A stretch of 64,000 nucleotides of DNA from an uncultured Coriobacteriaceae bacterium (GCA_900544245.1 UQUH01000001.1:5928-69927), one strand, 5' to 3'. Positions 33,893-64,000 are shown, counted from the stretch's first letter. A program made the numbers and translations. Notes: generated by a model from the sequence alone, not told the origin.

Positions 33893-33894
33893 AA

Positions 33895-35738: not shown

Positions 35739-35858
35739 TTAGTCGCGGAGCTCCTCGGCTTCCTTCTCCTGCTCCTTGGCCTCGTCGACGGAGATGGTCT
35801 CGTCGGCGTCGCTCTCGAAGCTCTCGAACTCCACGCTCTTGCCCTTTTCTTCTGCCAT
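35739..35858 (-). CDS. Possible small acidic protein (39 aa)
   Basis: It is below the track's ORF size cut-off. My translation is MAEEKGKSVEFESFESDADETISVDEAKEQEKEAEELRD. GGAAGGGTG lies 6 nt upstream and third positions are GC-rich. An extended -10-like TGGTATTAT sits about 105 nt upstream, and a hairpin lies downstream at 35667-35700. Confidence 0.35.
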   Translation of the reverse strand: MAEEKGKSVEFESFESDADETISVDEAKEQEKEAEELRD

Positions 35859-42936: not shown

Positions 42937-43401
42937 ATGGAAAGCATCCTCGTGGCATATTTCAGCGCGACGGGCACGACCAAGCGGGCTGCTCTGGCGC
43001 TGGCTGATTACCTAGGCGCGGACACCTTCGAGATCGTTCCGGAGGTTCCCTACTCCTCGGCGGACTTGAACTGGAATGACCGGCAGAGCCGGTCAAGCAA
43101 GGAGATGGATGACGAGGACTCACGCCCCAGCATCATTGGGCAAGTCGATGACATGGGCGCATACGAAACCATTTACGTGGGGTTTCCCATCTGGTGGTAC
43201 GTGGAGCCGCGCATCATCGACACGTTCCTGGAATCCTATGACATGACGGGCAAGACCGTCATTCCCTTCGCCACGTCTGGAGGTAGCGGCCTGGGAAAGA
43301 CCGCCCAGCACATGCAGGGAGTCTGCCCGCAGGCAATCGTCGAGCAAGGCTTCATGCTCAACGATTATTCAGCAGACAGGCTCGCGTCGTTGCTTGGATA
43401 G
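42937..43401 (+). CDS. Flavodoxin (short-chain, FMN-binding)
   Basis: ILVAYFSATGTTKRAA is the FMN phosphate-binding loop. YVGFPIWWY and IPFATSGGSG follow. Confidence 0.85.
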   Translation: MESILVAYFSATGTTKRAALALADYLGADTFEIVPEVPYSSADLNWNDRQSRSSKEMDDEDSRPSIIGQVDDMGAYETIYVGFPIWWYVEPRIIDTFLESYDMTGKTVIPFATSGGSGLGKTAQHMQGVCPQAIVEQGFMLNDYSADRLASLLG

Positions 43402-45895: not shown

Positions 45896-46831
45896 CTAGT
45901 CGCGAAGTTCGCGGCCGGTGATTTCCAGGAACACGTCGTTGAGCGTCGGCGGTTCGGCCCAGATGCGCCCGGCACGCACATGGGCTTTCGCAAGCTCGTC
46001 AAGCACGTCCGCGACGTTATGCTCGCCGTTCTCGCAGGTGATGGAGAGCTGACCGGCATCGTATTGAGCGCCCAGCACATGGGGGAGGGACTGGATGCGC
46101 AGGAGCGCGCCTTCGGGCACCTCTGCTTCGATGACGATCTTCTCGCCCGCGGCGACAATTTGCTTGAGCTCCTCGTTGGTGCCGCACGCGAGCGTGCGGC
46201 CCTTGTCCATGATCATGATGCGCGTGCAGATTTCCTCGACTTCCTCCATGTAATGGCTCGTGTAGACGATGGTCGAGCCATTGGCGTTCATCTGCTTGAT
46301 GCCATCGAGGATCGATGCACGGCTCTGCGGGTCGACCGCGACCGTGGGTTCGTCGAAGAAGATGAGCTCGGGCTTGTGGGCGATGCCGCAGGCGATGTTC
46401 AGGCGCCTGAGCAGGCCACCGGAGAGCTTCTTGGGGCGGGATTTCTCGTAGTCCTCGAGACCGACGAATTCGATGGCCTCGTGCACGAGCTTCCTACGTG
46501 TCGTGCTGTCGCTCACGTATAGCCCGCAGAAGTAGTCGATGTTCTCGCGCACGCTGAGTTCCTCGAATACGGCGACGTTTTGCGGAACGATGCCGATTTT
46601 TCGCTTCAGGTCGTAGCTCGACTGTGTCATGGGTTGTCCGAACAGGCGAATCTCTCCGCGATCGTAGGTAAGCAGCTGGAGTATGCAGTTGATGGCGGTG
46701 GTCTTGCCGCTGCCGTTTGGCCCGAGTAATCCGAATATCTCGCCACGCTCGATTTCCATGGTGAAGTGGTCGAGGGCGATCATGTTGCCATAGCGCTTGA
46801 CCAAATCGACTACCGAAACGATGTCTTGCAT
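45896..46831 (-). CDS. ABC transporter ATP-binding protein (ABC-2/DrrA-like)
   Basis: Walker A GPNGSGKTT, signature LSGGLLRR and Walker B IFFDEPTVAVD. I chose ATG 46831 with RBS GGAGGG. The track start 47011 is rejected. Confidence 0.88.
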   Translation of the reverse strand: MQDIVSVVDLVKRYGNMIALDHFTMEIERGEIFGLLGPNGSGKTTAINCILQLLTYDRGEIRLFGQPMTQSSYDLKRKIGIVPQNVAVFEELSVRENIDYFCGLYVSDSTTRRKLVHEAIEFVGLEDYEKSRPKKLSGGLLRRLNIACGIAHKPELIFFDEPTVAVDPQSRASILDGIKQMNANGSTIVYTSHYMEEVEEICTRIMIMDKGRTLACGTNEELKQIVAAGEKIVIEAEVPEGALLRIQSLPHVLGAQYDAGQLSITCENGEHNVADVLDELAKAHVRAGRIWAEPPTLNDVFLEITGRELRD

Positions 46832-46996
46832 GTTCTTCCCTCCGCACGCCTGCCGGCACTGTCGAGTGGCTCCATTTAAGCCCGTATGGGGCTTCAATGT
46901 AAACATGACATTTGTCATCGATGAGGAAAATGACCGGTCAGATGCCGTTTGCCATCGAACATGCGGATAATCACTGGCGCGTGGCCATTTGATATA

Positions 46997-47030
46997 GAGC
47001 CCCGCCATCATCCCGGTGATGGCGGGGCTC
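46997..47030 (-). terminator. Strong hairpin downstream of the GPH transporter gene
   Basis: GAGCCCCGCCATCA/TGATGGCGGGGCTC has 14-bp arms and a 6-nt loop. There is no clear T-run. Confidence 0.5.
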
Positions 47031-47060
47031 CTGATTCTGCAAAGACGAAATTACAAGAGG

Positions 47061-48437
47061 CTAGTCTGCACGGCTCTTCGCGACTAGGTCGCCGCTTCCC
47101 CTGTTTTCTATTTCCTCGCTCATGACCGGTATGTCGCTATCTTTTATTTTAAACATAAAGATAAGCGGGATGAGTGATATGAGAAGCAAAACGATGGGAA
47201 GAAGGAAGTACATTTGAAATATACCGGCTTGTGCTGCCACATTAAAAGTCGTGGCGGCTGCATCATATCCGACAAACGCAAGGAACGCTGGGAGAATAAT
47301 TGCGCGAAGCGTAACACCCACTTTAACGGCCACGGGCATAAGGGACATAGTCACGCCGGTTGTGTTTTCCCCGGTTTTCCAGTAGCTCCAAGTCGCGCAC
47401 ATTGAGTAGAGGTTGACAGTCAGCCCATAGGCAAAGCCGAAGAAGATTTGCGAAGCAAACAGCAAAATGTTGAGCACGAGGTAGTCTGGCTGGATAAAGA
47501 AAGCGATTGCCCACAGGATGAGCCAGCCGGCAACGCCAACAATTGTTGCGGTCTTGGTTCCGATTGCCTTTGCCACGCGCGCGGCAACGAAAGAACCGAT
47601 GAAGCAGCCGATATAGTAAACCATCAGGATGGTTCCGCTCGCCGCCGGATCGCCCAGGACAACTTTTGCATAGTACGCGGTGCCGGCTGCTACGGTGTAG
47701 TAGGCAATAAGACGAAGTAAATCATGTAGCACGACGCCAATTAGATGCGGATTTGTAATGACGTTTTTGCCCATTGCCTTAAAGGAAACCGTCTTCCCCG
47801 CATCTGACTTTGTTTCGGTGTCGTACCCCTTCGTAACTATGTATTGGATGCTCATGCAAGCGATGTAAATGAGCGAGAAGATCGCAGCACAAATGGTGTA
47901 TGCCCCGACACCGCTCACAAGAGTGGCAAGAGCGGCGGTAAGCCAGGGAACGAGCTGGGATGCACATACACGACCGAGAGCCGCACCGGCGCCCAAGCGC
48001 CCCGAGAGGAACGCTCGTTCGCTCGGCTCGTCTGTGAGTACATTGGTGAGGCTGCGGACGGCCGTATAGCTGATGTTCCAGAAGAAATGACTAATAATGT
48101 AGCCAACGGCGATGATGATTCCTGCTGTTATGTCACCACCGATTTTCGTGAAGCAGAGGATAAAGAACACCATGGCACAAAGCGGGGCGTAGAGCAGCCA
48201 TGGACGGTATTTGCCATTCTTAAAGTGAAACTTGTTGATGAAAACGCCGGCAATCGCGGCCGAAATAATATCGACTGCCGAAGCACCACCAGCAATAATA
48301 CCCGAAATTGCAAGTGGCAATTGCGCCACATCAGTCAGAAAGAATATGAAGAAAGCCGTCTCGAGCGTCGCGGTAATCGAGAAGCCCACTTCCGATATGC
48401 CCCAAACCGTTTTGATCTTTGAATTGATCCCCTTCAT
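47061..48437 (-). CDS. Glycoside-pentoside-hexuronide (GPH):cation symporter-family MFS transporter
   Basis: 458 aa with 12 TM helices. The N-terminus GISEVGFSITATLETAFFIFFLTDV and GKYRPWLLYAP is typical of MelB/YicJ-type carriers. Local GC is low. Confidence 0.8.
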   Translation of the reverse strand: MKGINSKIKTVWGISEVGFSITATLETAFFIFFLTDVAQLPLAISGIIAGGASAVDIISAAIAGVFINKFHFKNGKYRPWLLYAPLCAMVFFILCFTKIGGDITAGIIIAVGYIISHFFWNISYTAVRSLTNVLTDEPSERAFLSGRLGAGAALGRVCASQLVPWLTAALATLVSGVGAYTICAAIFSLIYIACMSIQYIVTKGYDTETKSDAGKTVSFKAMGKNVITNPHLIGVVLHDLLRLIAYYTVAAGTAYYAKVVLGDPAASGTILMVYYIGCFIGSFVAARVAKAIGTKTATIVGVAGWLILWAIAFFIQPDYLVLNILLFASQIFFGFAYGLTVNLYSMCATWSYWKTGENTTGVTMSLMPVAVKVGVTLRAIILPAFLAFVGYDAAATTFNVAAQAGIFQMYFLLPIVLLLISLIPLIFMFKIKDSDIPVMSEEIENRGSGDLVAKSRAD

Positions 48438-48679
48438 GCACCCTCCTTTTATTTAGAAGCTTCTTCGGGCGTGTGGCGTTATCTGCCTTTCTCTTTTGCC
48501 AGATGTTCATACGCCCTTTCTGCGCGGGATTACGCGCTACACGAGTTTATGTACCGGGTCAGATGAAAGCATTGGGCTTGATGTTGCATATAAACTGCGA
48601 TTACTTTGTGCCATCCGCATAGAGTGTTTTGCTCGGCATCTTAGTATTGGCGAAACCGCGCAATGAGTATTCGATGTTT

Positions 48680-48694
48680 TGTGCGAATTGCACA
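48680..48694. promoter_or_regulatory. Palindromic site S1 (TGTGC-N5-GCACA) in the GPH/PucR divergent region
   Basis: TGTGCGAATTGCACA lies 92 nt upstream of the PucR-like start. It follows the same pattern as S2 and S3. Confidence 0.55.
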
Positions 48695-48785
48695 ATTTAC
48701 TATGGGTGCATGTAGCTTGGTGCCTATAGCGTGCGTGAAGTTGAGGGGCTAGAATCAACGGACACGGGAACGAATCGCTCGGGGG

Positions 48786-50405
48786 ATGGGAGTCTTCGTG
48801 GGGATTACGTTCAACATAATCGAACATGAGTTGAAGAAGCTGTGGCCTATCCAACGCAGCCTGGATGGGAATCCTTCATTTGATGACGCCCGAATCTACC
48901 ATGACGGCGAGTTGCCGGCTTCGAAAGGCATGCTTTACATATGCGATGATGTCGAATCCTGTGAAAAGGCATCGGAGGACGGCCATGTGGTGATTTACGT
49001 TTGCCGTGAATCGGCCCCCGGCTTGCGTGACGTCATTTACGACCTCCGTGTTCTCGAGTGCCCCGACAAACTTGCGGTCTTGGATGCGTTGCTGGACATC
49101 TTTTCAAAGTACCGGTCTTGGGAAGCGGAACTGAACATGTGCTGCTTCGAAGATGGGGGGCTCCAGGAGCTCTTGGATGTGAGTGCGTCGTTTTTGAAAA
49201 ACCATGTCGTCATTTTGGATGCCGCACTGAAACTACTCGCCTATTCCAAGGATGTTCCCTGCGATGATGAGATAACCATGGAGTTGATCGCACATGGATA
49301 CCACACCGAAGCGAATATCACGAAGTTTAAGTTGCACCGCAGGTTTAAGCCATGGTCAGAGGAGGACGGGTTTGTCATTAATGATTCCTATGAGATATGC
49401 AAGTACATTACTGTCGCATATTCTTTTAAGACAGATGCTTCTTTTTCGATGATTCTGGTAATGATGTGTAACGTCGAAGATCCGCTTCCGTACCTGCTCG
49501 ATACGTTTTCCATTTTTATCAAGTATGTCGAGTACTATGTCAAGCGAGACTATCCGGCTAATAAACCAGCAGGAAATGCCGTCGATACCTTTTTAAGAGA
49601 TCTGTGCTCCGGCTCTCTTCGTGACAGAGCCGTGATTGCCGAGAGATGCGATTATGTGGCTCTTCCATATAATGCGCGCTTCTGCCTCTTCTACGTGGAG
49701 ACAAAGGCGGACTCCGTTCCATTTCTAAGGATACTATCGGATATCACGCTCGCGGTAGCCCCAGCAAAAGTGGTGGCAATAGACGACGCTCTTGTCATCC
49801 TATGTTTCAATTGCTTTCATGAGAGATGCCATCTTCATTGCGAGGCGCAGCATTGCGCCAAGGGCGCTAAGTCAACTTCCTCGCGCTTAAATAGGTTGAT
49901 GGAATCGTATGATTTGTATTGTGGGCGCAGTTCAAAGTTTGCAAACCTGGGAGATAGCCGCGTTGCCTTTCTGCAGGCAAGGGCAGCATATGACATTGGC
50001 ATAAAGAGCGCTTCCGGATTTGCGGGCTGCATGCCGCCGTGGGGACGAATTGTCTCATTTGATACTTGCTACGTAGACTTCCTGAACGATAATCTTCCCG
50101 AGGAAAAACGAGAAATGGCCTTAATGACCTATGCTGGAAGTATCCTGGAAGTCATCGCCGAGTCTGATACCAGCGCCAGGACTGATAATTACGACTTTCT
50201 GTATAAGTATCTTGAATGCGAGAGAAAGGCATCAGTTACGGCAAATGCGCTTCACATGCATCGCAACAATGTCAAATACCGGATTGACCGGATCGAACAA
50301 CAATTTGGAATCGATACCGATGACCCAACGCTTCGTTTTGATCTCATGCTCGCCTATCGCTTGCGCAAAACACACACTGTGCATAATGCACAATCAAACG
50401 AGTGA
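48786..50405 (+). CDS. PucR-family transcriptional regulator
   Basis: 539 aa. The C-terminal HTH ANALHMHRNNVKYRIDRIEQQFGID...RFDLMLAYRL is typical of the PucR C-terminal domain. Confidence 0.8.
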   Translation: MGVFVGITFNIIEHELKKLWPIQRSLDGNPSFDDARIYHDGELPASKGMLYICDDVESCEKASEDGHVVIYVCRESAPGLRDVIYDLRVLECPDKLAVLDALLDIFSKYRSWEAELNMCCFEDGGLQELLDVSASFLKNHVVILDAALKLLAYSKDVPCDDEITMELIAHGYHTEANITKFKLHRRFKPWSEEDGFVINDSYEICKYITVAYSFKTDASFSMILVMMCNVEDPLPYLLDTFSIFIKYVEYYVKRDYPANKPAGNAVDTFLRDLCSGSLRDRAVIAERCDYVALPYNARFCLFYVETKADSVPFLRILSDITLAVAPAKVVAIDDALVILCFNCFHERCHLHCEAQHCAKGAKSTSSRLNRLMESYDLYCGRSSKFANLGDSRVAFLQARAAYDIGIKSASGFAGCMPPWGRIVSFDTCYVDFLNDNLPEEKREMALMTYAGSILEVIAESDTSARTDNYDFLYKYLECERKASVTANALHMHRNNVKYRIDRIEQQFGIDTDDPTLRFDLMLAYRLRKTHTVHNAQSNE

Positions 50406-50622
50406 ATGATATGTCCATACGCAAAGAAAACTACAGCAGCGAAGCGAACTCATCATTCTGACCTGCAGACTCCGCGCTTGCATGAACGATTACTTGGCAA
50501 TGCGTTGCTGTCTCATCGCCCGACGTGTCCTCGTTGGTGCCGTATCTAGATAGCTATTGCTGCGTCAGCCATTTTCTGTCTTTTGCTGAACGCCGCTGAT
50601 TTTTGCAGGTCAGATAACTGAT

Positions 50623-50637
50623 TTGTGCAATTTGCAT
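50623..50637. promoter_or_regulatory. Palindromic site S2 (TGTGC-N5-GCATA)
   Basis: TGTGCAATTTGCATA lies 123 nt upstream of ATG 50760. Confidence 0.55.
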
Positions 50638-50759
50638 ATCACAATCGGGCATATTCGGTGAGTGTTGGACAATGCGGCCTCCTTATTTGCCCCTCTATAG
50701 TTTCGCGTTGCGGCGCGTCAAGTGCCGTGACAGTTATCAAGGCTGAGAGGATGGTTACA

Positions 50760-52307
50760 ATGGCAATTAAGAAGCTTGATGATGTTCGTCTGAATGTTAA
50801 GCCGATATTCCTAACCCTGTATCACGAATACGTGTTTGAGGGTCCCTGCCGTTTTGGCGATGGCATGCAGCTTGAGAAGGAATTCGACTTGATGATGGCT
50901 GCAGAGAAGTTCAAGGGTTGGTACAAGCAGCTTCAGGATGCAATGCCCGAGAACGTTGTCAACCTGCTCGATCCGGTCGAGGTTCAGCGCGACGAGAACT
51001 TCCTGACCACGGATGACATGCTCGAGAAGCTGGCCGAGGGCTGCGAGGATGTTGACCTGTACTACATCGGCTATGCAAGCCGTCCTTACGACTTGGCGCT
51101 CGAGTTCGCCCAGCGTGTCGGCAAGCCCATGGCAATCACTCAGGCCTGCTGCGCCTCTTCTATCACGTCCGCAGAGTTCCTGGCCCGAGGTCTTGAGTTC
51201 TATCCGTTCGAGGAGTGGACGGACGCCACCAGCTACATGACGATTCTGCGCGCTCGCAAGGCCCTGCACGAGGCGAAGTGCCTGTGCGCCGTTCGTGCAA
51301 CCAGCTCTGTTTCCGTGTCTGCTCCCGATTCCATCATCGATCCCGAAACGGCAACTGCCAAGTTCGGTATTCGCTGGCGCTTCATCTCGGCGCACGAGTT
51401 GCTGGACCAGATTTCCTACGATGACCCCATGTCCAACTATAACACCCCGGGTCGCAAGGGTCTCAACTTCACCGAGGAAGATGCTGCGGCGATCGAGAAA
51501 GCGACTCGCGAGTTCATTGACAACGCCCAGGTCAATTATATGAAGGAAGAGTACGTCAAGAAGTCCATCGAGGCTTGGTACGGTATCAACAAGTTCCTGG
51601 AGGCTACGGAGTGCAACTGCTTCACTGCTCCTTGCCCCGACCTGTGCGCAACGCGCCGCTTGAATGAGAAGCAGTTCACCATGTGCCTCAATCATTCCCT
51701 CAACAACGAGGCTGGCATTCCCTCTGCATGCGAGTATGATCTCGGTGCAATCATCTCCAAGGTCATCTTGCAGGAGCTCGGCCGCCGTCCGACCTATATG
51801 GGCAACTGCTTCACCGTTCCCGTTCGCAATGGCAAGCGCAGCCAGCTTCCCAAGGCTCTGTTCTTCACTCCGGAGGAAGTCGATGAGAAGATGGAGCTCC
51901 TGGGTACCGATGGAGATGTTGTCCTGACCTTCCATTCCGTCGCAAACCGTCGTTGGGAGAGCTACGACGAGCCTCTGCGTCCCTACAACATCCGCGAGTT
52001 TGCTCGTTCTGGTTGGGGCGCGACCGTCCGCTATGATTATGCGCAGGACGCCGGCCAGGTAATCACCATGTGCCGCATCGACCCCACCTGCACCAAGCTG
52101 TTCGTTGCCAAGGGCGAGATAGTCGCATCCATGGGCTACGAGTCCACCAATTGCTCTAATGGCGTCTTCTTCAAGGTCAAGGATTCCAAGGACTTCTTCC
52201 AGAAGCAGGCTGCAATCGGAAATCACATGCCGTTGATCTACGGCGATTTCGAGGAGCAGGTTATCGAGCTCGGCAAGCTGCTAGGTCTTGAGGTCATCGT
52301 CGCCTAA
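50760..52307 (+). CDS. Uncharacterised 515-aa protein, distantly L-fucose/L-arabinose isomerase-like (tentative)
   Basis: ATG 50760 lies 9 nt after GAGAGG. IPSACEYDLGAIISKVILQEL and GNHMPLIYGDFEEQVIELGKLLGLEV resemble the metal-site and C-terminal regions of the sugar isomerase superfamily. The 471-aa antisense ORF is rejected. Confidence 0.45.
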   Translation: MAIKKLDDVRLNVKPIFLTLYHEYVFEGPCRFGDGMQLEKEFDLMMAAEKFKGWYKQLQDAMPENVVNLLDPVEVQRDENFLTTDDMLEKLAEGCEDVDLYYIGYASRPYDLALEFAQRVGKPMAITQACCASSITSAEFLARGLEFYPFEEWTDATSYMTILRARKALHEAKCLCAVRATSSVSVSAPDSIIDPETATAKFGIRWRFISAHELLDQISYDDPMSNYNTPGRKGLNFTEEDAAAIEKATREFIDNAQVNYMKEEYVKKSIEAWYGINKFLEATECNCFTAPCPDLCATRRLNEKQFTMCLNHSLNNEAGIPSACEYDLGAIISKVILQELGRRPTYMGNCFTVPVRNGKRSQLPKALFFTPEEVDEKMELLGTDGDVVLTFHSVANRRWESYDEPLRPYNIREFARSGWGATVRYDYAQDAGQVITMCRIDPTCTKLFVAKGEIVASMGYESTNCSNGVFFKVKDSKDFFQKQAAIGNHMPLIYGDFEEQVIELGKLLGLEVIVA

Positions 52308-52427
52308 TCACCTTTTGGCTTGGAAGATTTTTCTTCCTGCACGCTTCAGATCCAAAGTTGGCTGGGCTGCTCGGGAAACCGAGTGGTCCAGCCAAAATAA
52401 TAGAGCGAGCCGTCAAGGAGCTTGGTC

Positions 52428-52856
52428 ATGCAAACACCAGACCAGATTCAAAGCGAGGTTATTCAGAGTTTTCTGGACGCGGGTGATCCATTGGCTCAGT
52501 TTGAATATCTGTTGACTTTGTCCTATCGACTCGAGGAGATGCCGGAGGAAGAGCGCACCAAGGACGTTCTGGTTAAAGGATGTCAAAGCCAGGTTTGGCT
52601 CTATGTTGATTGGCCAGATGGGAAAATGAGTATTCGCGGAGAAAGCGATACGCTCATGGTGCGCGGCGTGATCAATATTTTCAAAATGATGTTTGATGGG
52701 CGTTCCCCGCAAGAAGTGCTCGATTGTCCCATTCGCTTTGTTTCCGAGACGGACCTTGATGCAATTTTCGACCCGCAGCGCAAGGCCGGTGTCGCCTCCA
52801 TTTACGAAACCATATGTGTTTCCGCACGCGGGCAGTTGGCAGATCACGCTAAGTAA
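52428..52856 (+). CDS. sufE: SufE/CsdE-type sulfur acceptor
   Basis: VKGCQSQVWLYV holds the conserved persulfide Cys motif. ATG 52428 lies 7 nt after AAGGAG. Confidence 0.85.
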   Translation: MQTPDQIQSEVIQSFLDAGDPLAQFEYLLTLSYRLEEMPEEERTKDVLVKGCQSQVWLYVDWPDGKMSIRGESDTLMVRGVINIFKMMFDGRSPQEVLDCPIRFVSETDLDAIFDPQRKAGVASIYETICVSARGQLADHAK

Positions 52857-52868
52857 GGAAGGATGCTT

Positions 52869-53291
52869 ATGGCACAAAGGACCTTGAAAGAGCAACTGGA
52901 GGAAGCCGAGCAGCATTCCAAGGAGGTCCTCGATCAGCTCTTGGACGAGAATACAACGCGCGACGAGTTTCGTACGCTCATGAAATCGTATGTCGGGTAT
53001 CGTTTTTTTCTCGAGCCGGAGGAAATGAAGACGGACGTCATTTTGGATCTTGCAGAAGACAGCGTTGAGAAGCTTTTGAGCATCAACGATCTAAGCGTCA
53101 CGCTTTCCGAGGGGTCGCAAACCTGTACTAATCAGAGCTCTACGGACATCAAGAAGGTCCTGCTTTCGCTTACACTGCAACGTGCAATGGGAATCAAGTT
53201 CACGCCCGAGGAGTCTGCCGGTCTGGATACGATCGAAAAGCTCGCCTGCGCGCTTTTCGATGCGAAGAGTGATTCGACGCGCGTAAGATAG
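52869..53291 (+). CDS. Hypothetical protein (140 aa), helical; the C-terminal part is faintly carrier-protein-like
   Basis: The ORF lies between sufE and sufS, with RBS AAGGAAGG. I recognised no family. The spacing pattern SSTDIKKVLLSLTLQRAMGIKFTPEE...LDTIEKLACALF recalls ACP helices II-IV, but this is weak. Confidence 0.5.
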   Translation: MAQRTLKEQLEEAEQHSKEVLDQLLDENTTRDEFRTLMKSYVGYRFFLEPEEMKTDVILDLAEDSVEKLLSINDLSVTLSEGSQTCTNQSSTDIKKVLLSLTLQRAMGIKFTPEESAGLDTIEKLACALFDAKSDSTRVR

Positions 53292-53317
53292 CAAGCTACG
53301 AATGAAGGGAATCTGTT

Positions 53318-53554
53318 ATGACAATGCCAGACACTACGAGGCTCATCAAGCTCACTGTGGTGGATATGAATGGCCCGGACGATCTTGAGAAGCTAAAAGA
53401 TTTCTTTGCCAAAGAATTCGATTCCGATTTCACAATCGACGCAAATTACGACACCGGAATCATTACCATCGATGGACTTTGGGAAGAGGACACCGACATC
53501 ATCGATGCTGTTAACGAAGCGGGCTTCAGAGTCACTTACGCTTTGGCGATATAG
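53318..53554 (+). CDS. Hypothetical small protein (78 aa), ferredoxin-like/HMA-like beta-alpha-beta-beta-alpha-beta pattern without the CxxC motif
   Basis: RBS is GAAGGGA. IKLTVVDMNGPDDLEKLKDFF...GIITIDG...IIDAVNEAGFRV mimics the HMA-domain layout but has no cysteines. Confidence 0.5.
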   Translation: MTMPDTTRLIKLTVVDMNGPDDLEKLKDFFAKEFDSDFTIDANYDTGIITIDGLWEEDTDIIDAVNEAGFRVTYALAI

Positions 53555-53614
53555 CCATCTTTGATTGTCCGTCCTGAAGCAATTAATGGCTTCTTGCGCC
53601 TAGGGGGCATCTGC

Positions 53615-54829
53615 GTGTTCGACGTGAAAAAGGTTCGTAGCGATTTCCCGATTTTGGAGACTCAAGCCAACGGAAGGCCGTTGGTCTATCTGGATAATGC
53701 CGCGACAATGCAGATGCCCTTGCCTGTCATGCAGGCGATGCAGAAGCATTATGAGCTGGAAAATGCGAACGTCCATCGTGGTACGCATTATCTCTCCCAC
53801 GAGTCAACCAGGGCGTATGAGGAGGCGCGTGAGTCCATTGCGCGTTTCCTCAATGCCGCAGATGCGAGTAATATCGTATTCACTCCAGGAACAACCGGTG
53901 CTCTTAATATTGTCGCATCAGGATTACGCAATTACATACAGCCTGGCGACGTGGTGGTTGTGACCGCGCTCGAGCATCACTCTAACTATGTACCCTGGCA
54001 GCAGCTTTGCAAGGAGCGCGGTGCGGATTTTAGATGTGTCGGGATAGATGCCAACGGCGATCTCGACATGTCTGCATTGTGCGAGATGGCCGCTGGCGCA
54101 AAGGTGGTTGCGTGCACATGCTGCTCGAATGTCCTCGGCACTGTTACACCCATCGAGCAGGTTGTCCAGATTGCCCATGAGGCGGGCGCTTTGTGTGTAC
54201 TCGATGCTGCTCAGGGAATTCGCCACGAGCATATTGACGTGCAGAAACTGGATTGTGACTTCTTGGCATTCTCCGGTCACAAGATTGGTGCACCGGCTGG
54301 TATTGGCGTGCTCTATGGCAAACGCGAGACTCTTGAGTTGCTTGAGCCCCGCTGGTTTGGCGGGGAGATGGTTGACATTGTCACCATGAGTGAAACTACC
54401 TGGGAAGATCTGCCTCTTCGTCTGGAGCCAGGCACTCCAAACTACGCGGGTGCTATTGGCTTGGGAGCAGCAATTGATTACCTGGTCTCCATTGACAAGG
54501 ACGAGGCAGCCCAGCACGAAGACGATCTCATTGCGTATGCTGAAAAGCGTCTCGGCGAGATTGACGGCATGAAAATCTACGGCAGCCCCAATCATCGCAG
54601 CGGCTGCCTTTCCTTCAATATTGATGGAGCGCACCCCTTTGATGTCTGCACGCTTGTCGACAAGATGGGTATTGCACTCAGGAGCGGAAACATGTGTGCG
54701 CAGCCACTGCTTAACGAGCTTGGTTGCACTGCTGTCGCTCGTCTGTCACCTGCTTTCTATAACACGAGCGAGGAAATAGATATCACGGTCGAAGCGCTGC
54801 AACGCGCGGTAGTGGTGCTCAAACACTAG
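53615..54829 (+). CDS. sufS: Class II cysteine desulfurase (SufS/CsdA type)
   Basis: DNAATMQMP, HRGTHYLS, FSGHKIGAP (PLP Lys) and RSGNMCAQP (active-site Cys loop). I chose GTG 53615, 7 nt after TAGGGGG. The track TTG start at 53561 is unsupported. Confidence 0.85.
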   Translation: MFDVKKVRSDFPILETQANGRPLVYLDNAATMQMPLPVMQAMQKHYELENANVHRGTHYLSHESTRAYEEARESIARFLNAADASNIVFTPGTTGALNIVASGLRNYIQPGDVVVVTALEHHSNYVPWQQLCKERGADFRCVGIDANGDLDMSALCEMAAGAKVVACTCCSNVLGTVTPIEQVVQIAHEAGALCVLDAAQGIRHEHIDVQKLDCDFLAFSGHKIGAPAGIGVLYGKRETLELLEPRWFGGEMVDIVTMSETTWEDLPLRLEPGTPNYAGAIGLGAAIDYLVSIDKDEAAQHEDDLIAYAEKRLGEIDGMKIYGSPNHRSGCLSFNIDGAHPFDVCTLVDKMGIALRSGNMCAQPLLNELGCTAVARLSPAFYNTSEEIDITVEALQRAVVVLKH

Positions 54830-54869
54830 TGCTCGGGCCAAACCTGAGCAGAACCAAAGACCCATTGAT

Positions 54870-54884
54870 TATGCAAATGGCACA
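54870..54884. promoter_or_regulatory. Palindromic site S3 (reverse complement TGTGCCATTTGCATA)
   Basis: TATGCAAATGGCACA lies 103 nt upstream of ATG 54987. Its reverse complement matches S2 at 14/15 positions. Confidence 0.55.
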
Positions 54885-54986
54885 AGTGTGATGTGAATTC
54901 TAGTTTCATTGCGTAATGGATATCAACTTTTTGCTCCCATAGGATATATCCGTTGGTCGCGATTGGCTCAAGGCGAGGTGTTCACA

Positions 54987-56261
54987 ATGGAGAAATCGCA
55001 ACTGGATGCGTACCTCCGACGCATGGGGCTGGACTGCGCGGGAGACCCAAGCGCAGAATTGCTGAGGGTGCTTCAGGAACGCCATATTTACACGATCCCT
55101 GTTGAGAATCTGGATATCGTCAGAGGCGAGACACCTCCGTCACTCGATATCGATGACCTCTTCGAGAAAATTGTGGTTAGAAGACGAGGAGGAGTGAGTT
55201 TCGAGCTCAATTTGCTATTCGCTGACGCACTGCAAAGCCTTGGATATGACGTTGATCTTCTACTTGCAGAGTGCTTTCAATGCGGGCGCAGACTCAATCA
55301 TGCCCTCCTTCTTGTCCGAGTAAAAGACGGCAGCGAATGGATTGTCGATGTTGGTCATATTGAGAATTTTCACACGCCCCTATTGTTTGAGCCTCGAATC
55401 TGGCAAAGCGACGGCAAGGACGAATACACGTTTAGACGGCATAAAGATGATGAATTAGAGTGGAGTCTTGTGAGGCGAAGGTCCGGCAGAGAGCGGACCG
55501 TCTGCGTTCTGAGTCTCGAGCGCAGGGAGCCAAGTGATTATCGCTTGCAGTGCAATCGGTTTTGCAGTGATAAGAGTAACCGATTTACCTTGAGTCCGTA
55601 CGCATCTATCAAGAGGAGCGAAGGTCGCATCACGCTTCTGCATGACACCGTAATTAACGCCTGTACGAAAGAGATGCCACGTCCTCTCATACGCGATAGG
55701 GAGGAGCTCTGCTCCACGTTACGAGATACTTTTGGAATAGAGCTTGAGGCGGATAATCTGTTCGATGGCGAAGAATCTGATGCTGCCATGCCGACATACA
55801 GGAGGGTGCTCGCAGTTTTGAATGGGGCCTCGAATGCGGAGAGCGTTGTTAGAGCGGCGGCACAGATGGCTCTAGATGAGAATGCCCATCTGAGGTTCGT
55901 TTGCGCTTTGGATGAAGCCGGGAGGCATGACACTAGCATAAGCTTCTCGAAGTATGTGCAAGAGTCACGCCATGCACTTCAAGACTACGTGCACAGCATA
56001 CTTGATTTGATGGGAATTCGCAGTCTACTTATCGGCGCAGAAGTCGTCGTGCAAGGATTCAATAGGCTTGTCGGGGCGACCATAGATATGCCGACTGGAT
56101 TTACGCCACAGATGTTTGCAGAGCACATGGTATTGCCCTTTTGTCCGGATGTCATCATATGCGGCAGAGATTCGCGCTCCAAGGTAAAACGCATGTTCTC
56201 GGGCGATATGGCGAGTTACCTCGACAGACATCTTGAATGTGATGTCAAAGTGATTTCGTAA
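54987..56261 (+). CDS. Arylamine N-acetyltransferase (NAT)-like domain with Ser in the catalytic Cys position, fused to a universal stress protein (Usp) domain
   Basis: The NAT fold is LDAYLRRMGL...HIYTIPVENLDI...RRGGVSFELNLLF (canonical RGGYCFELN)...NHALLLVRV...WIVDVGH. The C-terminal Usp-like part is RVLAVLNGASNAESVV...DVIICGRDSRS...MFSGDMASYLDRHLECDVKVI. ATG 54987 lies 7 nt after GAGGTG. Confidence 0.75.
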   Translation: MEKSQLDAYLRRMGLDCAGDPSAELLRVLQERHIYTIPVENLDIVRGETPPSLDIDDLFEKIVVRRRGGVSFELNLLFADALQSLGYDVDLLLAECFQCGRRLNHALLLVRVKDGSEWIVDVGHIENFHTPLLFEPRIWQSDGKDEYTFRRHKDDELEWSLVRRRSGRERTVCVLSLERREPSDYRLQCNRFCSDKSNRFTLSPYASIKRSEGRITLLHDTVINACTKEMPRPLIRDREELCSTLRDTFGIELEADNLFDGEESDAAMPTYRRVLAVLNGASNAESVVRAAAQMALDENAHLRFVCALDEAGRHDTSISFSKYVQESRHALQDYVHSILDLMGIRSLLIGAEVVVQGFNRLVGATIDMPTGFTPQMFAEHMVLPFCPDVIICGRDSRSKVKRMFSGDMASYLDRHLECDVKVIS

Positions 56262-56324
56262 TCCATATCGCGCTGCTTTAGGCACGCTGGGAGGCTTAGC
56301 GCATCCCTCCACACCCCCTGTACG

Positions 56325-57134
56325 ATGCTGAGCCTCCTACATGCCGTCTTTTGCATGAGCGCTGCCTTCGAATACGTTCACGAGGGCTTTCCGGGTGGGT
56401 ATAATCGCGGCATGGAAGAATACTTCGACGAAATCATCCTGCTTGTCGCATGTGCGGCGGTGTCGCTTTGCTTCGCCGATGCGAATCACGTGGTCATCGG
56501 GATCCTGCTTTCGGTTTCGCTCGTGTGCATATGTGACATGGTAGGGCTTCGGTGGCGAATCATTGCCCAGCTCGCGTTTCTCATCTGCGCGTTCGCGTTT
56601 CCCGCCGTGCTTCCCTTTTTGCCCGTGTGCGCTTACGTCATGCTGCATGAGCGCATGTGGCTCCTACGCGTCGTCTGGGTCGTTCCGCTTGTGGTGGCAC
56701 TGTCTTTTGGCGGATGCGCTGCCGTCGAAGGGGCGGTCATTGCCATCGCATGCGCGGCAGCCGTCCTGATGGGAGTCAAGGATGCTCGCATGCGTGCGGA
56801 GCGCATGGGTATGCGATTCGCGTTCGACGACTTGCGCGAACGCAATCTCGGGCTGCTTTCGGAACGCGAGCTCGACACGAGGACGCAAGGTGTCCAGGGC
56901 GCGTCGGGCATGCAGGCGCAGGATGCGCAAGCGCGGACCGCGGGACCTTTCTGCAATCTCACGGAGCGGGAGTATGCGGTGGCCAAGCTCGTTGCCGAGG
57001 GTATGGACAACCGCGATATCGCGGCGAGTCTCTTCTTGTCCGAGGGCACGGTGCGCAACCACATCAGCTCGATTCTTGGCAAGCTCGAGCTGAGCAATCG
57101 CACGCAAATCGCCATCATGTACTACAAGGGATAG
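56325..57134 (+). CDS. Membrane-anchored LuxR-family transcriptional regulator
   Basis: About 5 N-terminal TM helices precede the C-terminal LuxR HTH LTEREYAVAKLVAEGMDNRDIAASLFLSEGTVRNHISSILGKLELSNRTQ. The start is uncertain (56325 or ATG 56412). Confidence 0.8.
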   Translation: MLSLLHAVFCMSAAFEYVHEGFPGGYNRGMEEYFDEIILLVACAAVSLCFADANHVVIGILLSVSLVCICDMVGLRWRIIAQLAFLICAFAFPAVLPFLPVCAYVMLHERMWLLRVVWVVPLVVALSFGGCAAVEGAVIAIACAAAVLMGVKDARMRAERMGMRFAFDDLRERNLGLLSERELDTRTQGVQGASGMQAQDAQARTAGPFCNLTEREYAVAKLVAEGMDNRDIAASLFLSEGTVRNHISSILGKLELSNRTQIAIMYYKG

Positions 57135-57186: not shown

Positions 57187-57504
57187 ATGGGGTTTCTAGA
57201 GGCGGTTCAGAAGAAAATCGACGAAAGGCAGGCGAAGTGGGATGCCCAAGGGCCGTCGGACTTCGATGCGTGGGACAAGGCCGAGATCGAGTACCTGGAG
57301 GGCATACGTGACGAGCTCGAGCGCGGCGTCGAGCCTAAGGCCGTGTACGAGAGGCTCAAGGCCGAACTTCCCGAGCTCGAGGAACGGGTTGCGGGCGAGG
57401 AGGCGTGCTACACCTTCGATTGGTATGACGATCACCATTACGAGAAGATCTACTCCGGACGCCTTATGGCCTGCCGGGCTCTTCTGGAACTCTACGAGCG
57501 GTAA
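57187..57504 (+). CDS. Hypothetical helical protein (105 aa)
   Basis: The ORF has normal composition and ATG 57187. No family was recognised. Confidence 0.5.
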   Translation: MGFLEAVQKKIDERQAKWDAQGPSDFDAWDKAEIEYLEGIRDELERGVEPKAVYERLKAELPELEERVAGEEACYTFDWYDDHHYEKIYSGRLMACRALLELYER

Positions 57505-57517
57505 AGGCAGTTGCGAC

Positions 57518-58162
57518 TCATGTGATGTAGCGCCAGCAAAGGGAGTCACCCGGCTTCAGGACGTAGTTGCAGGCTGCCGTCATGGGCATGTTCCCGTTGA
57601 CGCTATAGGTCCATCCGCTGGCGGCGCCCATCATCTTTTCGGCCAAGCCGCCGATTGCGGAGACGTACGAGGGCGTCCCCGTAAGGGAAAGCCCGGTGCT
57701 CCTCAGGGCGTCGTAGGCGCTTGAGTTGGCGGGGAGCCGCAACGATTTCGAGGCCATGGCCGCCGGAAACCCGAGTGATTCTGCGGCGGAGCTATCCACG
57801 AGAATCGATACCGTTATCGGGGCGCTTTCCGGCGTTTGCGACGAGGGCTCCGTTTCCGGGACCGGTGACGCCACATTGCCGCCGGCGCCACCGGTCCTGT
57901 CGGAATCCACGGGATTTGTCGCATTGTCGGCGACGGGCAAGGGGCCCTCTCCGGTCGAGCCTGTGATGGCTTGGGAAGACTCGACCGGCGTCGTCTCGCT
58001 TGACGCAAGGCCTCCGACGGTTCCTGTCTGGAATATCGCGACCAGCGAAAGCGCCACGCATGCTAGCGACAGTGCACCAAGAAGCGCACCCGCCGTTCTT
58101 CTATCGGGTTTGCCCGGTTTCACGCTAGCTCTGCTTACGAGTGCCGGAGATGAAGAGGGCAA
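57518..58162 (-). CDS. Membrane-anchored DUF4430 (transcobalamin-like C-terminal domain) protein
   Basis: An N-terminal TM helix (LLGALSLACVALSLVAIF) and a low-complexity linker precede the DUF4430-like core ITVSILVDSS...NSSAYDALRSTGLSLTG..YVSAIGGLAE...GWTYSVNG...LKPGDSLCWRY. The start overlaps the upstream gene by 38 nt. Confidence 0.7.
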   Translation of the reverse strand: MPSSSPALVSRASVKPGKPDRRTAGALLGALSLACVALSLVAIFQTGTVGGLASSETTPVESSQAITGSTGEGPLPVADNATNPVDSDRTGGAGGNVASPVPETEPSSQTPESAPITVSILVDSSAAESLGFPAAMASKSLRLPANSSAYDALRSTGLSLTGTPSYVSAIGGLAEKMMGAASGWTYSVNGNMPMTAACNYVLKPGDSLCWRYIT

Positions 58163-61100
58163 TGGACACCGCTACGCCTCCAAGTGATAGGAACAAAAAG
58201 ACATAGGCCATCAGCCCCTGGTATTTGACAGCGTCTTGCATGGTTGACCCGGCGGCGGCAAGGGGAGTTTCGTTTTCGTAGACCGCTTGCTCGGAAATGG
58301 CGGGGTCTGTCGGCGCGGAAAGCGCGATGGTGGATGACGGACTTGCGGAATATAGCATCGCTTCATCGTCCTGTACGCTGTCTGATTCCTGCCTTTCCCC
58401 TGGTGCATGCCCCCCTTCTCCAGATTCGGCAGGCGAGATCGCAAGGGCAAAGAGCCTGCCCGAATCATTGACGTAATAAAAGCGACCGAGACCATATGCT
58501 ATGGAGCCCATCGAGTAATTGTGCATTCCCGCAGGCGGGTCGAAGGCAAGCGTGGCCTGCGTGCCTCCGAGACGATAGGCGTAAACGCCGCCACCTCCCG
58601 TGTAGTCGGGGTATTCGCCAATCGCTCCGTTGCAGGTGAATAGCGCGATGATGCCGTCAGCATCGCGGATCAGGGTCGGCATGCTCTTGACCTCACCGGG
58701 AAGAGGCGTGCCGTTTGCGGTGTCCGCGCTGCCAAGTAACCTCATGCTCTGCGCGTCGATGGCCGTGAGCATGCCCTGGCCATTCTTGCTGCCCCCGACG
58801 TAGATGACGCCGTCGGCTATGGCAGGACTCGACGTGGAGTAGTCCGCGAAGGTGACGCGTGCCAACTCCCGGGGCTGGCCTGTACTTCCCACCGTGACCT
58901 TGTGCAAGACGCCATCAGTGGTGACCACGTAGGCGACGTCGCTCGAGCTGACGATGGTGGAGCGCACGGGGGCGCCAAGGTCGAGTGTCCCTGAGGCGGT
59001 GCCCGTCATCGAGTCCTTTGCGATAGCGCGAAGTTGTCCGTCGTCCCCTGCCGCGAGAAGGAATCCGTTTAGATGGGCCGCTCCCGTCCAGTAGTATCCG
59101 GCGTCCTGGTTTCTTTGGATCCAGCGTACGGCGCCCGTCTTCAGGTCGACACACAGGGAGTACCCTCCATGGGTTTTCGCCCAATCGGCCTCTGCGGTGA
59201 ATGCGTAGACGCAATCGTCCCCGAGGGTGAGCGTCGAGAGCGATTGCTGCTCATAGACACTCGGGACGGTCGATCCGGAAACGCTGACGGCATGGGCGGG
59301 GAGCGCGTCCGTGAGCCAGACCGTCGTGAGGTCAAGCGCGGAAAGCGCCTGGAGGCGTCCGTTGTTGACGGGCACTATCACCATGCCGTTCGCGTAGACG
59401 GGGCGACATCCGTAAGCGGTCGATTCGGCGAGTGCGGTGCTGGCGACGACGGATCCCGTCACGGCATCGATTTTGAATATCTGGCTGCCCGAGGTGAAGA
59501 AGACGAAGTCTCCGGCCATGACGGGTTCGGACCATGAAGCGTACGATCCTTGGGCAAAGTCCAAGGTCCAATCGCTCGAAAGGCTGGAGATTGTGGTCTG
59601 GATGGTGGCGGGATTGGTGCCAGCAGCCCCGTACGATTTCCACGGCGCGTCCCAGTTGGCGAGAGGGACATCGGGCGTGATGGGGATGTCCGGTTTGGTC
59701 ATCGTGCCCGTGGCGTCGATGTAGACGAGCTCGATCACGTCTCCGTCTTTGGGATAGTATCCGCTCGGGAGAGAACCAGCGTAGACGCCGTTGACGAAGA
59801 AGGACCAGTAGGACCACGGGGCACCTGAGCTCATCGCTAGGGTTTGGGTGCGATCGGGCGTGGTGATGGAATAGGGGCATCCTCCGTTGAGGTTGTAGAA
59901 GTAACCGGCGTCATTGAGCATGCCGGCAAAGATGTCCCAGGCCGAAACGCGCGTCGTCGATGTCACGGTATAGTTGGACGTGGGAATCCATGCGACTTGC
60001 TGGAAGCTCGCGCCCGGGGCGTGCGGGGTGACCCCCGTCACGCGTACGGTGACGTCAAGGGTCATGGGGTTCTTGGGATCTTCGGGCGTGGGATTGACGG
60101 GCTCGACGGGTTCGCCGAGTTGAATCGGCTTGCGTGTGGGTCCGGCTTCCATGACGTTGAAGCCGGCATCGACGAGGCACTTGAGGTACTTCCCAGCATA
60201 GGATTGGGGGATGACGAAGGAGCTCGCGTGGACGTTCTCGTCGTCGAGCTCGACGTAGTCTCCGTCATAGGAGTCTGATATGAGCCAGGTGTAGTTGAGC
60301 TGGTCTGCCGAGAGGTAGTCACCGGCCGTTCCCGCCGCGCTCGTTTCCCGTGCGCTGACGCCGATGGTGCGGCCCGTCCAGAACGTGAAGTTTTCGTCAG
60401 CTGGTGTCTGGTCGAGGGCGGCGTAGTAGAGCTCGCGGGTGCCTGCTTTGCGGAAGGGGCCCGCTGCGTAAACATCAGGGGTCGTCACGGTGTTGTCACC
60501 GGCGTTCGCGCTGACCGCGACCCAGCAGCCTTCGAGGTTTTCGGGGACGGTGAGCTCGGATCCGGCCGCGCCTTCGATCTTGTGCCATTCGGGCTCTACA
60601 GGCCCGTAACCGGGGCGCGTGTCAGTCCAGTACCAGGTGTAGTTGACGTTCTCACTCACTGGAGTTTCGCCCCATGAGCTGTTCGTGTAGGGCTGCGCCA
60701 CGAGCTTGTCGCCGATGAATTTGGCAGAAGAGGCATTGAGGATCTCGATGCGGGAAAGCGTCGTGACTCCACGGGGAAGGATGCGGCCCACCGGGGACTC
60801 GCATTGATCGTGACCGGGAATGCCGTTCTTTGCTGTGGCCACCACCTTGATAAAGCGGCCCGAGGGCTCGTCGGCATGGAATATGGCGCCAGTTGCCACC
60901 TCGGTGAAGGGGCCGTTCTTGGATTCGGCGGTTTGCCAGGAGAAGTCAACCTCGTCGGGGCCGTAGAGGGTGTTCGGGTCATCGAAGTCGTAGGAGGCAG
61001 CTTTCAACGTGTCTCCTACATGGCAATCAGGCGTAGTTTCGAGCTCGGAGCCGAAGTCAGCGCCGTTCGTTGATATCAGCACATAGTCGAGATTGATCTG

Positions 61101-62273: not shown

Positions 62274-62299
62274 GCAGATACACCTACTTCCAGGGCTAT

Positions 62300-62470
62300 C
62301 GTGCAATGGGCAGGTATTCCGACTTTGCCTCGACTGAAGTGTCTGGTGCGCAACCACCATCCCATGCGGCTCGAAAGCCATACGGGACTCGACACCCCAT
62401 CAGCTCATACGGTTCCTGGTAGAGCGGGGGATTCTCACCCCCATTCCCCTCAGTCGGACAACCTCTTGCT
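62300..62470 (-). promoter_or_regulatory. Cobalamin (B12) riboswitch-like leader of the surface-protein operon
   Basis: The minus strand carries GAGGGGAAUGGGGGUGAGAAUCCCCCGC (62424-62451), ACCGUA, GCCGCAUGG and a B12-box-like AAGUCGGAAUACCUGCCC (62308-62325). UCCGACU (62452-62458) can pair with AGUCGGA (62318-62324) to close the aptamer. The RBS GGAAGUAGGUG follows. Confidence 0.7.
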
Positions 62471-62518
62471 CCCCGACCGGCGCGATGCCTCGCGCAGCCC
62501 ATCAAGGCCAATGCGGCA

Positions 62519-62527
62519 AGTATAGCA
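62519..62527 (-). promoter_or_regulatory. Extended -10 promoter candidate for the riboswitch-led operon
   Basis: The minus strand reads TGCTATACT, which fits TGnTATACT. I see no good -35 element. It lies just downstream of the ClC gene stop. Confidence 0.4.
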
Positions 62528-62546
62528 CCCGTATGCGAAGCAGGAG

Positions 62547-63812: not shown

Positions 63813-63814
63813 GA

Positions 63815-64000
63815 CTATTCCTCCTCGTCGGCCTCGTCAGCTTCGGATTGCGCGCTCAGGGGCAAGCGCCGGTTTCTCTGCGCCCGAAACTCCTCGACGA
63901 ATCCCGCCGAGAAGATGCCCGCCGGGATGGCGACGACGGCAATCGAGAGGACCATGACGACGAAGCCGATGATCCTTCCCAGCGCGGTGATGGGGACGAG
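63815..64000 (-). CDS. Potassium/ion channel protein, C-terminal end only (the gene continues right of the window)
   Basis: My reverse translation is LVPITALGRIIGFVVMVLSIAVVAIPAGIFSAGFVEEFRAQRNRRLPLSAQSEADEADEEE*. This matches the post-filter inner helix of K+ channel pore domains. The stop at 63815-63817 lies 2 nt from the ClC start. Confidence 0.7.
   Translation of the reverse strand, partial: LVPITALGRIIGFVVMVLSIAVVAIPAGIFSAGFVEEFRAQRNRRLPLSAQSEADEADEEE

Follow-up and report, generated by a model that had tools for sequence, protein, structure and literature searches.

The 64,000-nucleotide (nt) stretch of DNA analysed here (the window) derives from an uncultured Coriobacteriaceae bacterium (GCA_900544245.1, UQUH01000001.1:5928-69927) and carries an inserted island of approximately 9.43 kb (nt 46953–56384, ±30 bp), poor in guanine and cytosine (GC), between the genes for an ABC-2 exporter and a LuxR-type regulator. 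Eight genes occupy the whole island, encoding a GPH-type symporter, a PucR-family regulator, a 515-amino acid (aa) protein with a sugar isomerase fold (termed X515), a SufE-type sulfur acceptor, two small proteins (termed U140 and U78), a SufS-family cysteine desulfurase, and an N-acetyltransferase (NAT) fused to a partial Usp domain (NAT-Usp). The same inventory had been given in a preliminary description made from the sequence alone, and searches of Pfam and NCBIfam found it to be correct; its "isomerase-like" label for X515 holds at the level of the fold (Foldseek) but has no match among sequence families.

The GC content of the island is 0.513, versus 0.610 for the remainder of the window. 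In sliding 1-kb intervals, GC ranged from 0.475 to 0.572 across ~46.7–56.3 kb and from 0.548 to 0.661 outside it, and eight of the nine non-overlapping 1-kb intervals of the island lay 3.0–4.8 standard deviations (SD) under the host mean (0.611, SD 0.027, n = 53 intervals of 1 kb). Left of the island, every 9.4-kb segment has a GC of at least 0.580. The deviation extends to codon usage, with a GC content at third codon positions (GC3) of 0.59 in island genes and 0.78 in host genes (Mann-Whitney p = 4e-7), and a poorer fit of the island genes to the synonymous codon usage of the host (p = 1e-4). The drop in GC over ~9 kb was originally noticed from hand counts of five 60-nt lines, which proved exact (38.3, 40.0 and 46.7% in the island; 61.7 and 65.0% in the flanks); the sliding profile and the formal test of 1-kb intervals confirm it, and a reading without significant deviation in GC or codon usage fails.

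The limits of the island were set by alignment to an island-free contig of a relative (L111), which matches the window up to nt 46918 and resumes at nt 56398, and to a contig with a second form of the island (form B, described below; L004), which matches up to nt 46952 and resumes at nt 56385. The GC-poor island thus lies where it had first been placed, but its limits shift from 47040–56300 to ~46953–56384. In a total of ten island-free contigs from relatives (L111, L112, L113, L115, L116, L117–L120, and L114, a second contig with the L113 arrangement), LuxR directly adjoins the ABC ATPase gene and the two are transcribed divergently. The protein identity of their ABC ATPase to that of the window is 97% (L116), 95% (L111), 90% (L112), 84% (L113, L114) and 81% (L115), and L117–L120, which were found by scanning for the pattern of an empty junction, share 89–93% nucleotide identity with the window over the ABC operon. 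The ten contigs represent at least five sister lineages.

In these empty sites, only 66–70 bp separate the palindrome ATGACATTTGTCAT from the −10 box and start of LuxR (TATAAT-N7-ATGGAAGAATAC). The same two landmarks are found in the window at nt 46905–46918 and nt 56400–56424, with the island between them. The palindrome, which has one exact occurrence in the window and is identical in the empty L111, L112 and L116, is a putative LuxR operator and, on the left side, the final stretch of conserved host sequence before the island. At the right junction, the LuxR promoter (TTCACG-17-TATAAT, nt 56377–56405, forward strand) is intact, with TATAAT-N7-ATG kept in L111, L112 and L116, and the ancestral spacer seems, from the sequence, to have been split between both junctions. 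We also attempted to find the exact insertion point by in silico excision; the spacer changes too fast, and no placement better than ±30 bp was obtained. The empty sites support the proposed insertion between the genes of the ABC-2 exporter and of LuxR, and they rule out a universal, syntenic presence of the island in the clade.

Within the species itself, the exact island and flank proteins are present on hundreds of public metagenome contigs. A survey of own-species contigs (three readings of 23, 24 and 23 contigs, some of them 0.9–2.0 Mb long) showed that, at all 30 of the displayed places, the island separates LuxR from the ABC ATPase gene, and it appears to be fixed within the species.

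X515 (nt 50760–52307, forward strand; start chosen from a GAGAGGA ribosome-binding site, in agreement with public gene calls) belongs to no Pfam family and had no sequence match in the PDB even at E ≤ 10, and its sole NCBIfam match is a faint one of 53 residues to SftI (24.5 bits vs. a cut-off of 700). Its AlphaFold2 model is confident (mean predicted local distance difference test score, pLDDT, 93.5). The best Foldseek match was 7chl_B (E = 4e-18, template modelling (TM) score 0.67), and the top 41 PDB matches were all AraA (L-arabinose isomerase), FucI (L-fucose isomerase) or D-arabinose isomerase, at E-values of 4e-18 to 8e-12, TM scores of 0.60–0.67 and 10–13% identity. Alignment of 93 full-length homologues revealed seven invariant cysteines (C30, C285, C292, C296, C309, C324 and C465), five of which fall in one block, along with five histidines and several acidic residues invariant in 93/93, including tandem paralogues of <42% identity. 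Among the invariant residues, E317, E325, H392 and H489 are candidates, by alignment, for a Mn2+ site of the Glu/His type. The invariant cysteines are not known from the sugar isomerases AraA and FucI.

The X515 family is of moderate size, with 152 clusters at 50% identity (E ≤ 1e-30), and is distributed over the Eggerthellaceae, Oscillospiraceae, Lachnospiraceae, Erysipelotrichaceae, Geopsychrobacteraceae, Syntrophorhabdaceae, Dehalococcoidales, Spirochaetia and others. Across genera, X515 retains 75–79% aa identity, and SufE, U140, SufS and PucR retain 45–60%. Many genomes encode two divergent X515 paralogues in tandem, which are ~45% and 31–36% identical to the window protein (among others at L062–L064, L067, L069, L071, L077, L081, L087, L090, L094 and L096), often with two U140 copies and sometimes beside molybdopterin oxidoreductases, and some genomes carry at least two clusters. 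The tandem paralogues suggest heteromeric enzymes and a diversified family.

Downstream of X515 lie the genes of a sulfur-transfer set. The SufE-type acceptor (142 aa, nt 52428–52856, forward strand) carries an intact active-site cysteine loop (GCQSQVW) and matched Pfam SufE at 100.4 bits (E = 8e-29; cut-off 27); since it scored 68 bits against the NCBIfam SufE equivalog, below the cut-off of 160, its sequence marks it as a divergent member of the SufE family. The SufS-family cysteine desulfurase (411 aa by the public call, nt 53594–54829, forward strand; the open reading frame (ORF) opens at nt 53561) scored 502.6 bits against TIGR01979, above the cut-off of 475.1 (Aminotran_5, E = 2e-129), and its translation shows intact catalytic motifs, namely the pyridoxal phosphate (PLP)-binding lysine (SGHK) and the active-site segment RSGNMCA. 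Between them, U140 (140 aa, nt 52869–53291, forward strand) had no match in Pfam or NCBIfam family searches. Its AlphaFold2 model (pLDDT 74.8) is a helical bundle with a cysteine on a flexible loop (GSxTCTNQSSTDIKKVLL); this residue, Cys88, is at least 90% conserved across phyla, and the KKVLL segment is also kept. A conserved Ser-Ser precedes a helix, no PP-binding Pfam match was found, and the fold matches of U140 include the acyl carrier protein (ACP) subunit of the human NFS1 complex (8tvt). Of 80 X515 loci, 65 encode U140, and in 11 loci, from other phyla, it forms the N-terminal part of a fusion protein with SufS. The remaining small protein, U78 (78 aa, nt 53318–53554, forward strand), is found in the species itself and in the metagenome-assembled genome (MAG) L021 only, and had no family or structure match; a first reading of it as similar to a metal-binding domain, though lacking cysteines, was dropped.

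Counting only loci with enough downstream sequence, SufS was found in 23, SufE in 24 and U140 in 24 of the 24 orthologous X515 loci, and in 21, 17 and 27, respectively, of the 34 distant loci. At the level of sequence, the core is a conserved unit that ties the cysteine desulfurase pair to X515 by way of U140. The island encodes no SufB, SufC, SufD, SufU, NifU or IscU scaffold, and no SufBCD family recurs among the clustered neighbours of X515 loci; in Ellagibacter-type loci, a TusA-DsrE sulfurtransferase adjoins the cluster. Full-text literature searches found no published description of an X515/SufS/SufE cassette. The neighbours at 45 distant loci were also inspected for clues to the substrate, yielding generic LysR regulators, a few reductases of the old-yellow-enzyme type, and MetE. 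We did not retain these as clues; none of the LysR proteins falls into a sulfur-specific subfamily, and MetE belongs to a metE-metR pair that is merely adjacent to X515. Molybdopterin oxidoreductases beside paralogous clusters were set aside as well, given that these enzymes are abundant in the Eggerthellaceae.

The PucR-family regulator (539 aa, nt 48786–50405, forward strand) has a C-terminal helix-turn-helix (Pfam HTH_30, residues 471–525, 60 bits vs. a cut-off of 27, E = 2e-16), and a PucR gene is found with the cluster at 23 of the 24 orthologous loci; the regulator beside the cluster is of PucR type in the Eggerthellaceae and mostly LysR elsewhere. A motif scan detected operator-like palindromes of the type TGTGCA-N3-TGCACA at four sites: in the divergent GPH/PucR promoter region (TTGTGCGAATTGCACAA, nt 48679–48695), at the 3′ end of PucR (nt 50380–50393, two mismatches), ~120 bp upstream of the X515 start (nt 50623–50639), and ~100 bp upstream of NAT-Usp (nt 54869–54885). 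All seven matches in the window, which correspond to these four sites, fall inside the island; 1.34 would be expected, and none of 100 shuffles reached this figure. In orthologous clusters of other genera, the same palindrome type stands upstream of PucR in L021, L022, L024, L026, L039, L044 and L047 and upstream of X515 in L021, L022, L024, L039 and L048. We infer that PucR would bind this palindrome, and the predicted pairing of operator and regulator would make the island a single regulon under a PucR-type regulator. The earlier view of a self-contained regulator and transporter gains support from a conserved palindrome that, within the window, is confined to the island. No riboswitch or other RNA element was detected in the long intergenic regions of the island (no Rfam match at E ≤ 1).

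The symporter (458 aa, nt 47061–48437, reverse strand) is of the GPH/MFS_2 type, with 181.8 bits against Pfam MFS_2 (E = 2e-53) and 179.4 bits against TIGR00792, the latter under its cut-off of 231. Its stop codon is followed by a hairpin with a perfect 14-bp stem and a 6-nt loop (nt 46997–47030, reverse strand; inverted repeat, 100% complementary), probably a terminator that would shield the ABC operon from read-through. The symporter gene is intact in the window, but a minimum of three distinct lesions in other strains (L002, L007/L110, L012) break it into ORF pairs of 237 + 231, 264 + 164 and 237 + 219 aa, with the fragments on 6–33 contigs each and the intact protein on 132. In L002, L009 and L104, PucR is called as merely 417 aa. 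The split symporter and the shortened PucR suggest that selection is relaxed on some parts of form A, the island form of the window.

The last gene of the island encodes the NAT-Usp fusion (424 aa by the public call, nt 54987–56261, forward strand; the ORF opens at nt 54909), with an Acetyltransf_2 domain (E = 9e-39) followed by a partial Usp domain. In the motif RRGGVSFELN, a serine replaces the catalytic cysteine; the segment reads GGVSFELN where solved NAT enzymes (2bsz/4nv7 alignment) have GGYCFEHN, and the other two triad residues, His and Asp, are present. Because homologues of 46–47% identity in L026 and L027 share the serine, it is a stable subfamily trait rather than a one-off loss.

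The X515 family was traced in one genome per species, and the best matches of all island proteins fall within the Eggerthellaceae. The closest cluster is that of MAG L021 (X515 88–89%, SufE 78%, U140 72% and SufS 73% identity; GC ~0.55), and the symporter is 88% identical to that of L026 and L027, two mouse-gut Eggerthellaceae whose cluster has a GC of 0.50 and likewise includes a NAT-Usp. In most other Eggerthellaceae genera, the orthologous cluster lies in different surroundings and has the GC of its flanks (0.58–0.64), so the low GC of the island reflects its source and not the genes themselves. Lower-GC members of the Eggerthellaceae are a likely source of the island. The preliminary description had suggested horizontal acquisition on the grounds of composition and of a self-contained regulator and transporter; the taxonomic best matches uphold this and refine it to a transfer within the family.

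Within the species, the island exists in two mosaic forms. Form A, seen in the window, consists of GPH, PucR, the core and NAT-Usp, the symporter and NAT-Usp being its accessory genes. Form B consists of PucR, the core, a DUF169 gene, a different MFS_2 transporter (28% identical to GPH) and a 191-aa protein. The two forms share 94% identity in the core, and the PucR alleles are 74% (nt) and 77% (aa) identical. The gene order of form B is that of L021 (MFS_2 81%, 191-aa protein 70% identity), and, because of this, form B is probably the older form, as far as gene order can tell. The left flanks of forms A and B, both with the island, are ~96% identical; lineages without it are ~92–93% identical in the adjacent ABC operon.

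Taken as a whole (acquisition, regulon and inferred sulfur relay), the best explanation, which we consider quite probable, is that the island is a block of ~9.4 kb, not mobile by itself, that the ancestor of the species would have acquired from lower-GC Eggerthellaceae. The island lies within the 66–70-bp divergent promoter spacer of LuxR and the ABC-2 exporter, with the putative LuxR operator on the exporter side and the LuxR −35/−10 elements and start on the other. The island would then have been fixed in the species and its ends remodelled, with form A gaining another symporter of the MFS_2/GPH type on the left and the serine-bearing NAT-Usp on the right.

With regard to function, an inducer would act on PucR, and a small, probably sugar-like molecule would be imported via the MFS_2 symporter. 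SufS would draw sulfur off cysteine as a persulfide and hand it to SufE and/or Cys88 of U140, which would deliver it to X515, the cysteine-rich enzyme on an AraA/FucI scaffold. X515 could place the sulfur in a metal-sulfur site of its own or in the imported sugar-like substrate; the direction and acceptor of the transfer and the substrate are read from gene context, and we regard modification of a substrate and a metal-sulfur site in X515 as about equally likely. More broadly, X515, U140, SufS and SufE may constitute an undescribed enzyme system found in multiple phyla, in which an isomerase scaffold was turned into a sulfur-handling catalyst (for metabolite sulfuration or a new metal-sulfur cofactor) and U140 is a new desulfurase-bound carrier or adaptor, a proposal that we advance tentatively and to which we would give somewhat less than an even chance.

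A different account of the same core holds that SufS, SufE and U140 are a private maturation system for an unusual Fe-S or other metal-sulfur cofactor in X515, which would itself be a redox or dehydratase-type enzyme and would not insert sulfur into a metabolite. The NifS and NifU proteins, which serve nitrogenase, provide a model for such private maturation. The seven cysteines and five histidines that are invariant in all 93 homologues, divergent tandem paralogues (possible heterodimers) included, fit a cofactor site, as does a dedicated desulfurase gene beside its client; however, the island has none of the scaffolds looked for (SufBCD, SufU, NifU or IscU), and SufS is found at only 21 of the 34 distant X515 loci. 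We consider this account conceivable, though short of likely.

As for the origin of the island, acquisition by transfer must be weighed against an ancestral block, present in the whole genus and precisely deleted in relatives, whose low GC would be a local property of its genes. Orthologous clusters in many Eggerthellaceae genera, the presence of the island in every displayed contig of the species, and the host-like codon usage of X515 would all suit such a block. It would, however, require repeated precise excisions to account for at least five island-free lineages with an intact, homologous 66–70-bp spacer; moreover, in most other genera the cluster has different flanks and a GC like that of its host, and the remaining island genes fit the host codon usage poorly. 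We therefore consider an ancestral block improbable.

Still less probable, in our view, is that the island came from a self-mobile element, as its cargo or remnant, through site-specific integration of a transposon, prophage or integrative element. The sharp limits within an intergenic spacer and the exchange of accessory genes at both ends are what such an element might leave, but none of the eight island genes encodes an integrase, transposase, relaxase or phage protein, and the same cassette elsewhere has no conserved mobility neighbour. The only tRNA genes of the window, at nt 2764 and 31311, lie at least 15 kb away, and no direct or inverted terminal repeats or target-site duplication beyond chance were found at the island ends, which bears out the initial remark that integrase, transposase and flanking direct repeats are missing. 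A 14-nt repeat at nt 47281 and 56280 (93% identity) was examined as a possible flanking repeat and rejected, as both copies lie inside genes and the match is at chance level. Finally, an artefact of assembly or binning, in which a chimeric contig would combine this genome with DNA of a lower-GC organism, might be suspected for a host known from metagenome assemblies only. It is excluded for practical purposes because the two junctions are found, with identical bases, in contigs of many independent samples, projects and pipelines, including contigs of 0.9–2.0 Mb, with L011 99.97% identical to the window over 17.7 kb spanning the island and both junctions.

Acquisition from lower-GC Eggerthellaceae, with the regulon and sulfur relay proposed above, is itself faced with several observations that weigh against it. 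The X515 gene is an exception to the compositional pattern, with a host-like codon fit and a GC3 of 0.73, unlike all other island genes; this would be compatible with high expression or long residence. LuxR is 72–78% identical (nt) to its counterparts in sister lineages, far more diverged than the ABC operon (91–93%), and for this reason the exchanged tract may, on sequence grounds, be larger than the GC-poor part. The best donor candidates do not exceed 89% protein and 73% DNA identity, making the donor lineage approximate, and no X515 of >89% identity occurs in the species-representative genomes of the GTDB. The exact X515 protein was found in 409 indexed blocks of the public assembly collection and on 216 contigs; either the species is without a representative in the GTDB or its representative lacks the region. 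No mobility gene, tRNA, target duplication or terminal repeat explains the entry of the block. On the functional side, the fold matches of U140 are ACPs and are weak (E = 0.1–1.7; TM 0.68, target-normalised), and the role of the core is drawn from context, with no substrate clue, riboswitch or informative enzyme neighbour.

Host genes flank the island on either side. The ABC-2 exporter ATPase (311 aa, nt 45896–46831, reverse strand; Pfam ABC_tran and DrrA1-3_C) is the first gene of an operon of an ATPase and two permeases, is also called as 311 aa in public contigs, and shows 91–93% nucleotide identity in island-free sisters. The LuxR/GerE regulator (nt 56413–57134, forward strand; GerE, E = 6e-18) has a membrane N-terminal part and probably controls the exporter operon. 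Because TATAAT-N7-ATG is conserved in the empty sites, we predict that LuxR probably starts at the ATG at nt 56413 (MEEYFDEII) on a leaderless mRNA, giving a protein of 240 aa instead of 259–269 aa. Its codon fit is the poorest of all genes in the window.

Other variable segments were noted in the window. Right of LuxR and its 105-aa neighbour lies a second presence/absence block (nt 57499–63859). L111, L116, L119 and L120 lack its genes for a DUF4430 protein, a PQQ_2-repeat protein of 1418 aa and a CLC channel; L112 is without the DUF4430 and PQQ_2-repeat genes. The PQQ_2 protein differs in length by strain (1324, 1348, 1382 or 1418 aa), and in L026 and L027 the PQQ_2 and DUF4430 genes immediately follow NAT-Usp. 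In the left flank, a Flavodoxin_4 gene (nt 42937–43401) is missing in L111, and the same-species strain L104 is without a block of DUF364, NTPase, FecCD, ABC, binding-protein and MoeA genes (~36.7–42.9 kb). A mildly GC-poor stretch (nt 31389–35742, GC 0.55–0.58), which adjoins a tRNA-Met gene (nt 31311–31387), encodes a response regulator, a histidine kinase and a protein of 494–506 aa, has no counterpart in L112, and may be another variable segment.

The sulfur-transfer set of the island can be compared to the SufS-SufE/SufBCD and CsdA-CsdE/TcdA systems of Escherichia coli, with which it shares a type-II PLP-dependent desulfurase and a SufE-family acceptor, both with their active-site cysteine, encoded beside the presumed client. 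In contrast to these systems, the island has neither a SufBCD scaffold nor a TcdA-like E1 enzyme and is not a SUF operon; its presumed client is a cysteine-rich protein of the AraA/FucI fold that belongs to no described family, it adds U140 (fused to SufS in other phyla), and sets of this type stand under PucR or LysR and are linked to a symporter. X515 resembles AraA and FucI across its whole length in its three-domain fold. It differs from them in its low identity (10–13%), its position outside both sequence families and its seven invariant cysteines, and its gene neighbours encode sulfur-transfer proteins, not a kinase and an aldolase. A parallel to the association of U140 with SufS is provided by the eukaryotic NFS1-ISD11-ACP complex, where a small, helical, ACP-like protein is likewise tied to a desulfurase (here by gene fusion at 11 loci). 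However, the fold match of U140 is weak, the protein has an additional helical hairpin at its N-terminus as well as a conserved cysteine loop, the island has no ISD11-like partner, and its desulfurase is of type II (SufS) and not type I.

Like classical tRNA-linked islands, the island has a deviant composition, an empty site in relatives, accessory metabolic genes and mosaic ends. Unlike them, it has no integrase, tRNA target or direct repeats, lies in a divergent promoter spacer, is apparently fixed rather than strain-variable, and would come from a donor of the same family. The NAT-Usp protein shares with the arylamine N-acetyltransferases a full-length Acetyltransf_2 domain and the His and Asp of the triad; it differs in having serine for the nucleophilic cysteine and in its fused partial Usp domain.

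As a transfer event, the acquisition proposed here would be ordinary and known in kind, although the case is clean and well bounded: a metabolic regulon would have entered a common, uncultured actinobacterium of the human gut without visible mobility machinery, become fixed, and then undergone gene swaps. The cargo matters more. X515 with its private SufS/SufE pair and U140, found in Eggerthellaceae, Clostridia, relatives of the Desulfuromonadales and others, would place an undescribed client and adaptor on a cysteine desulfurase relay, a moderately novel enzyme system. If the proposal is true, whether as metabolite sulfuration or as a new cofactor, bacterial sulfur trafficking would gain a new class of client, and an unknown activity of gut Eggerthellaceae would be indicated.

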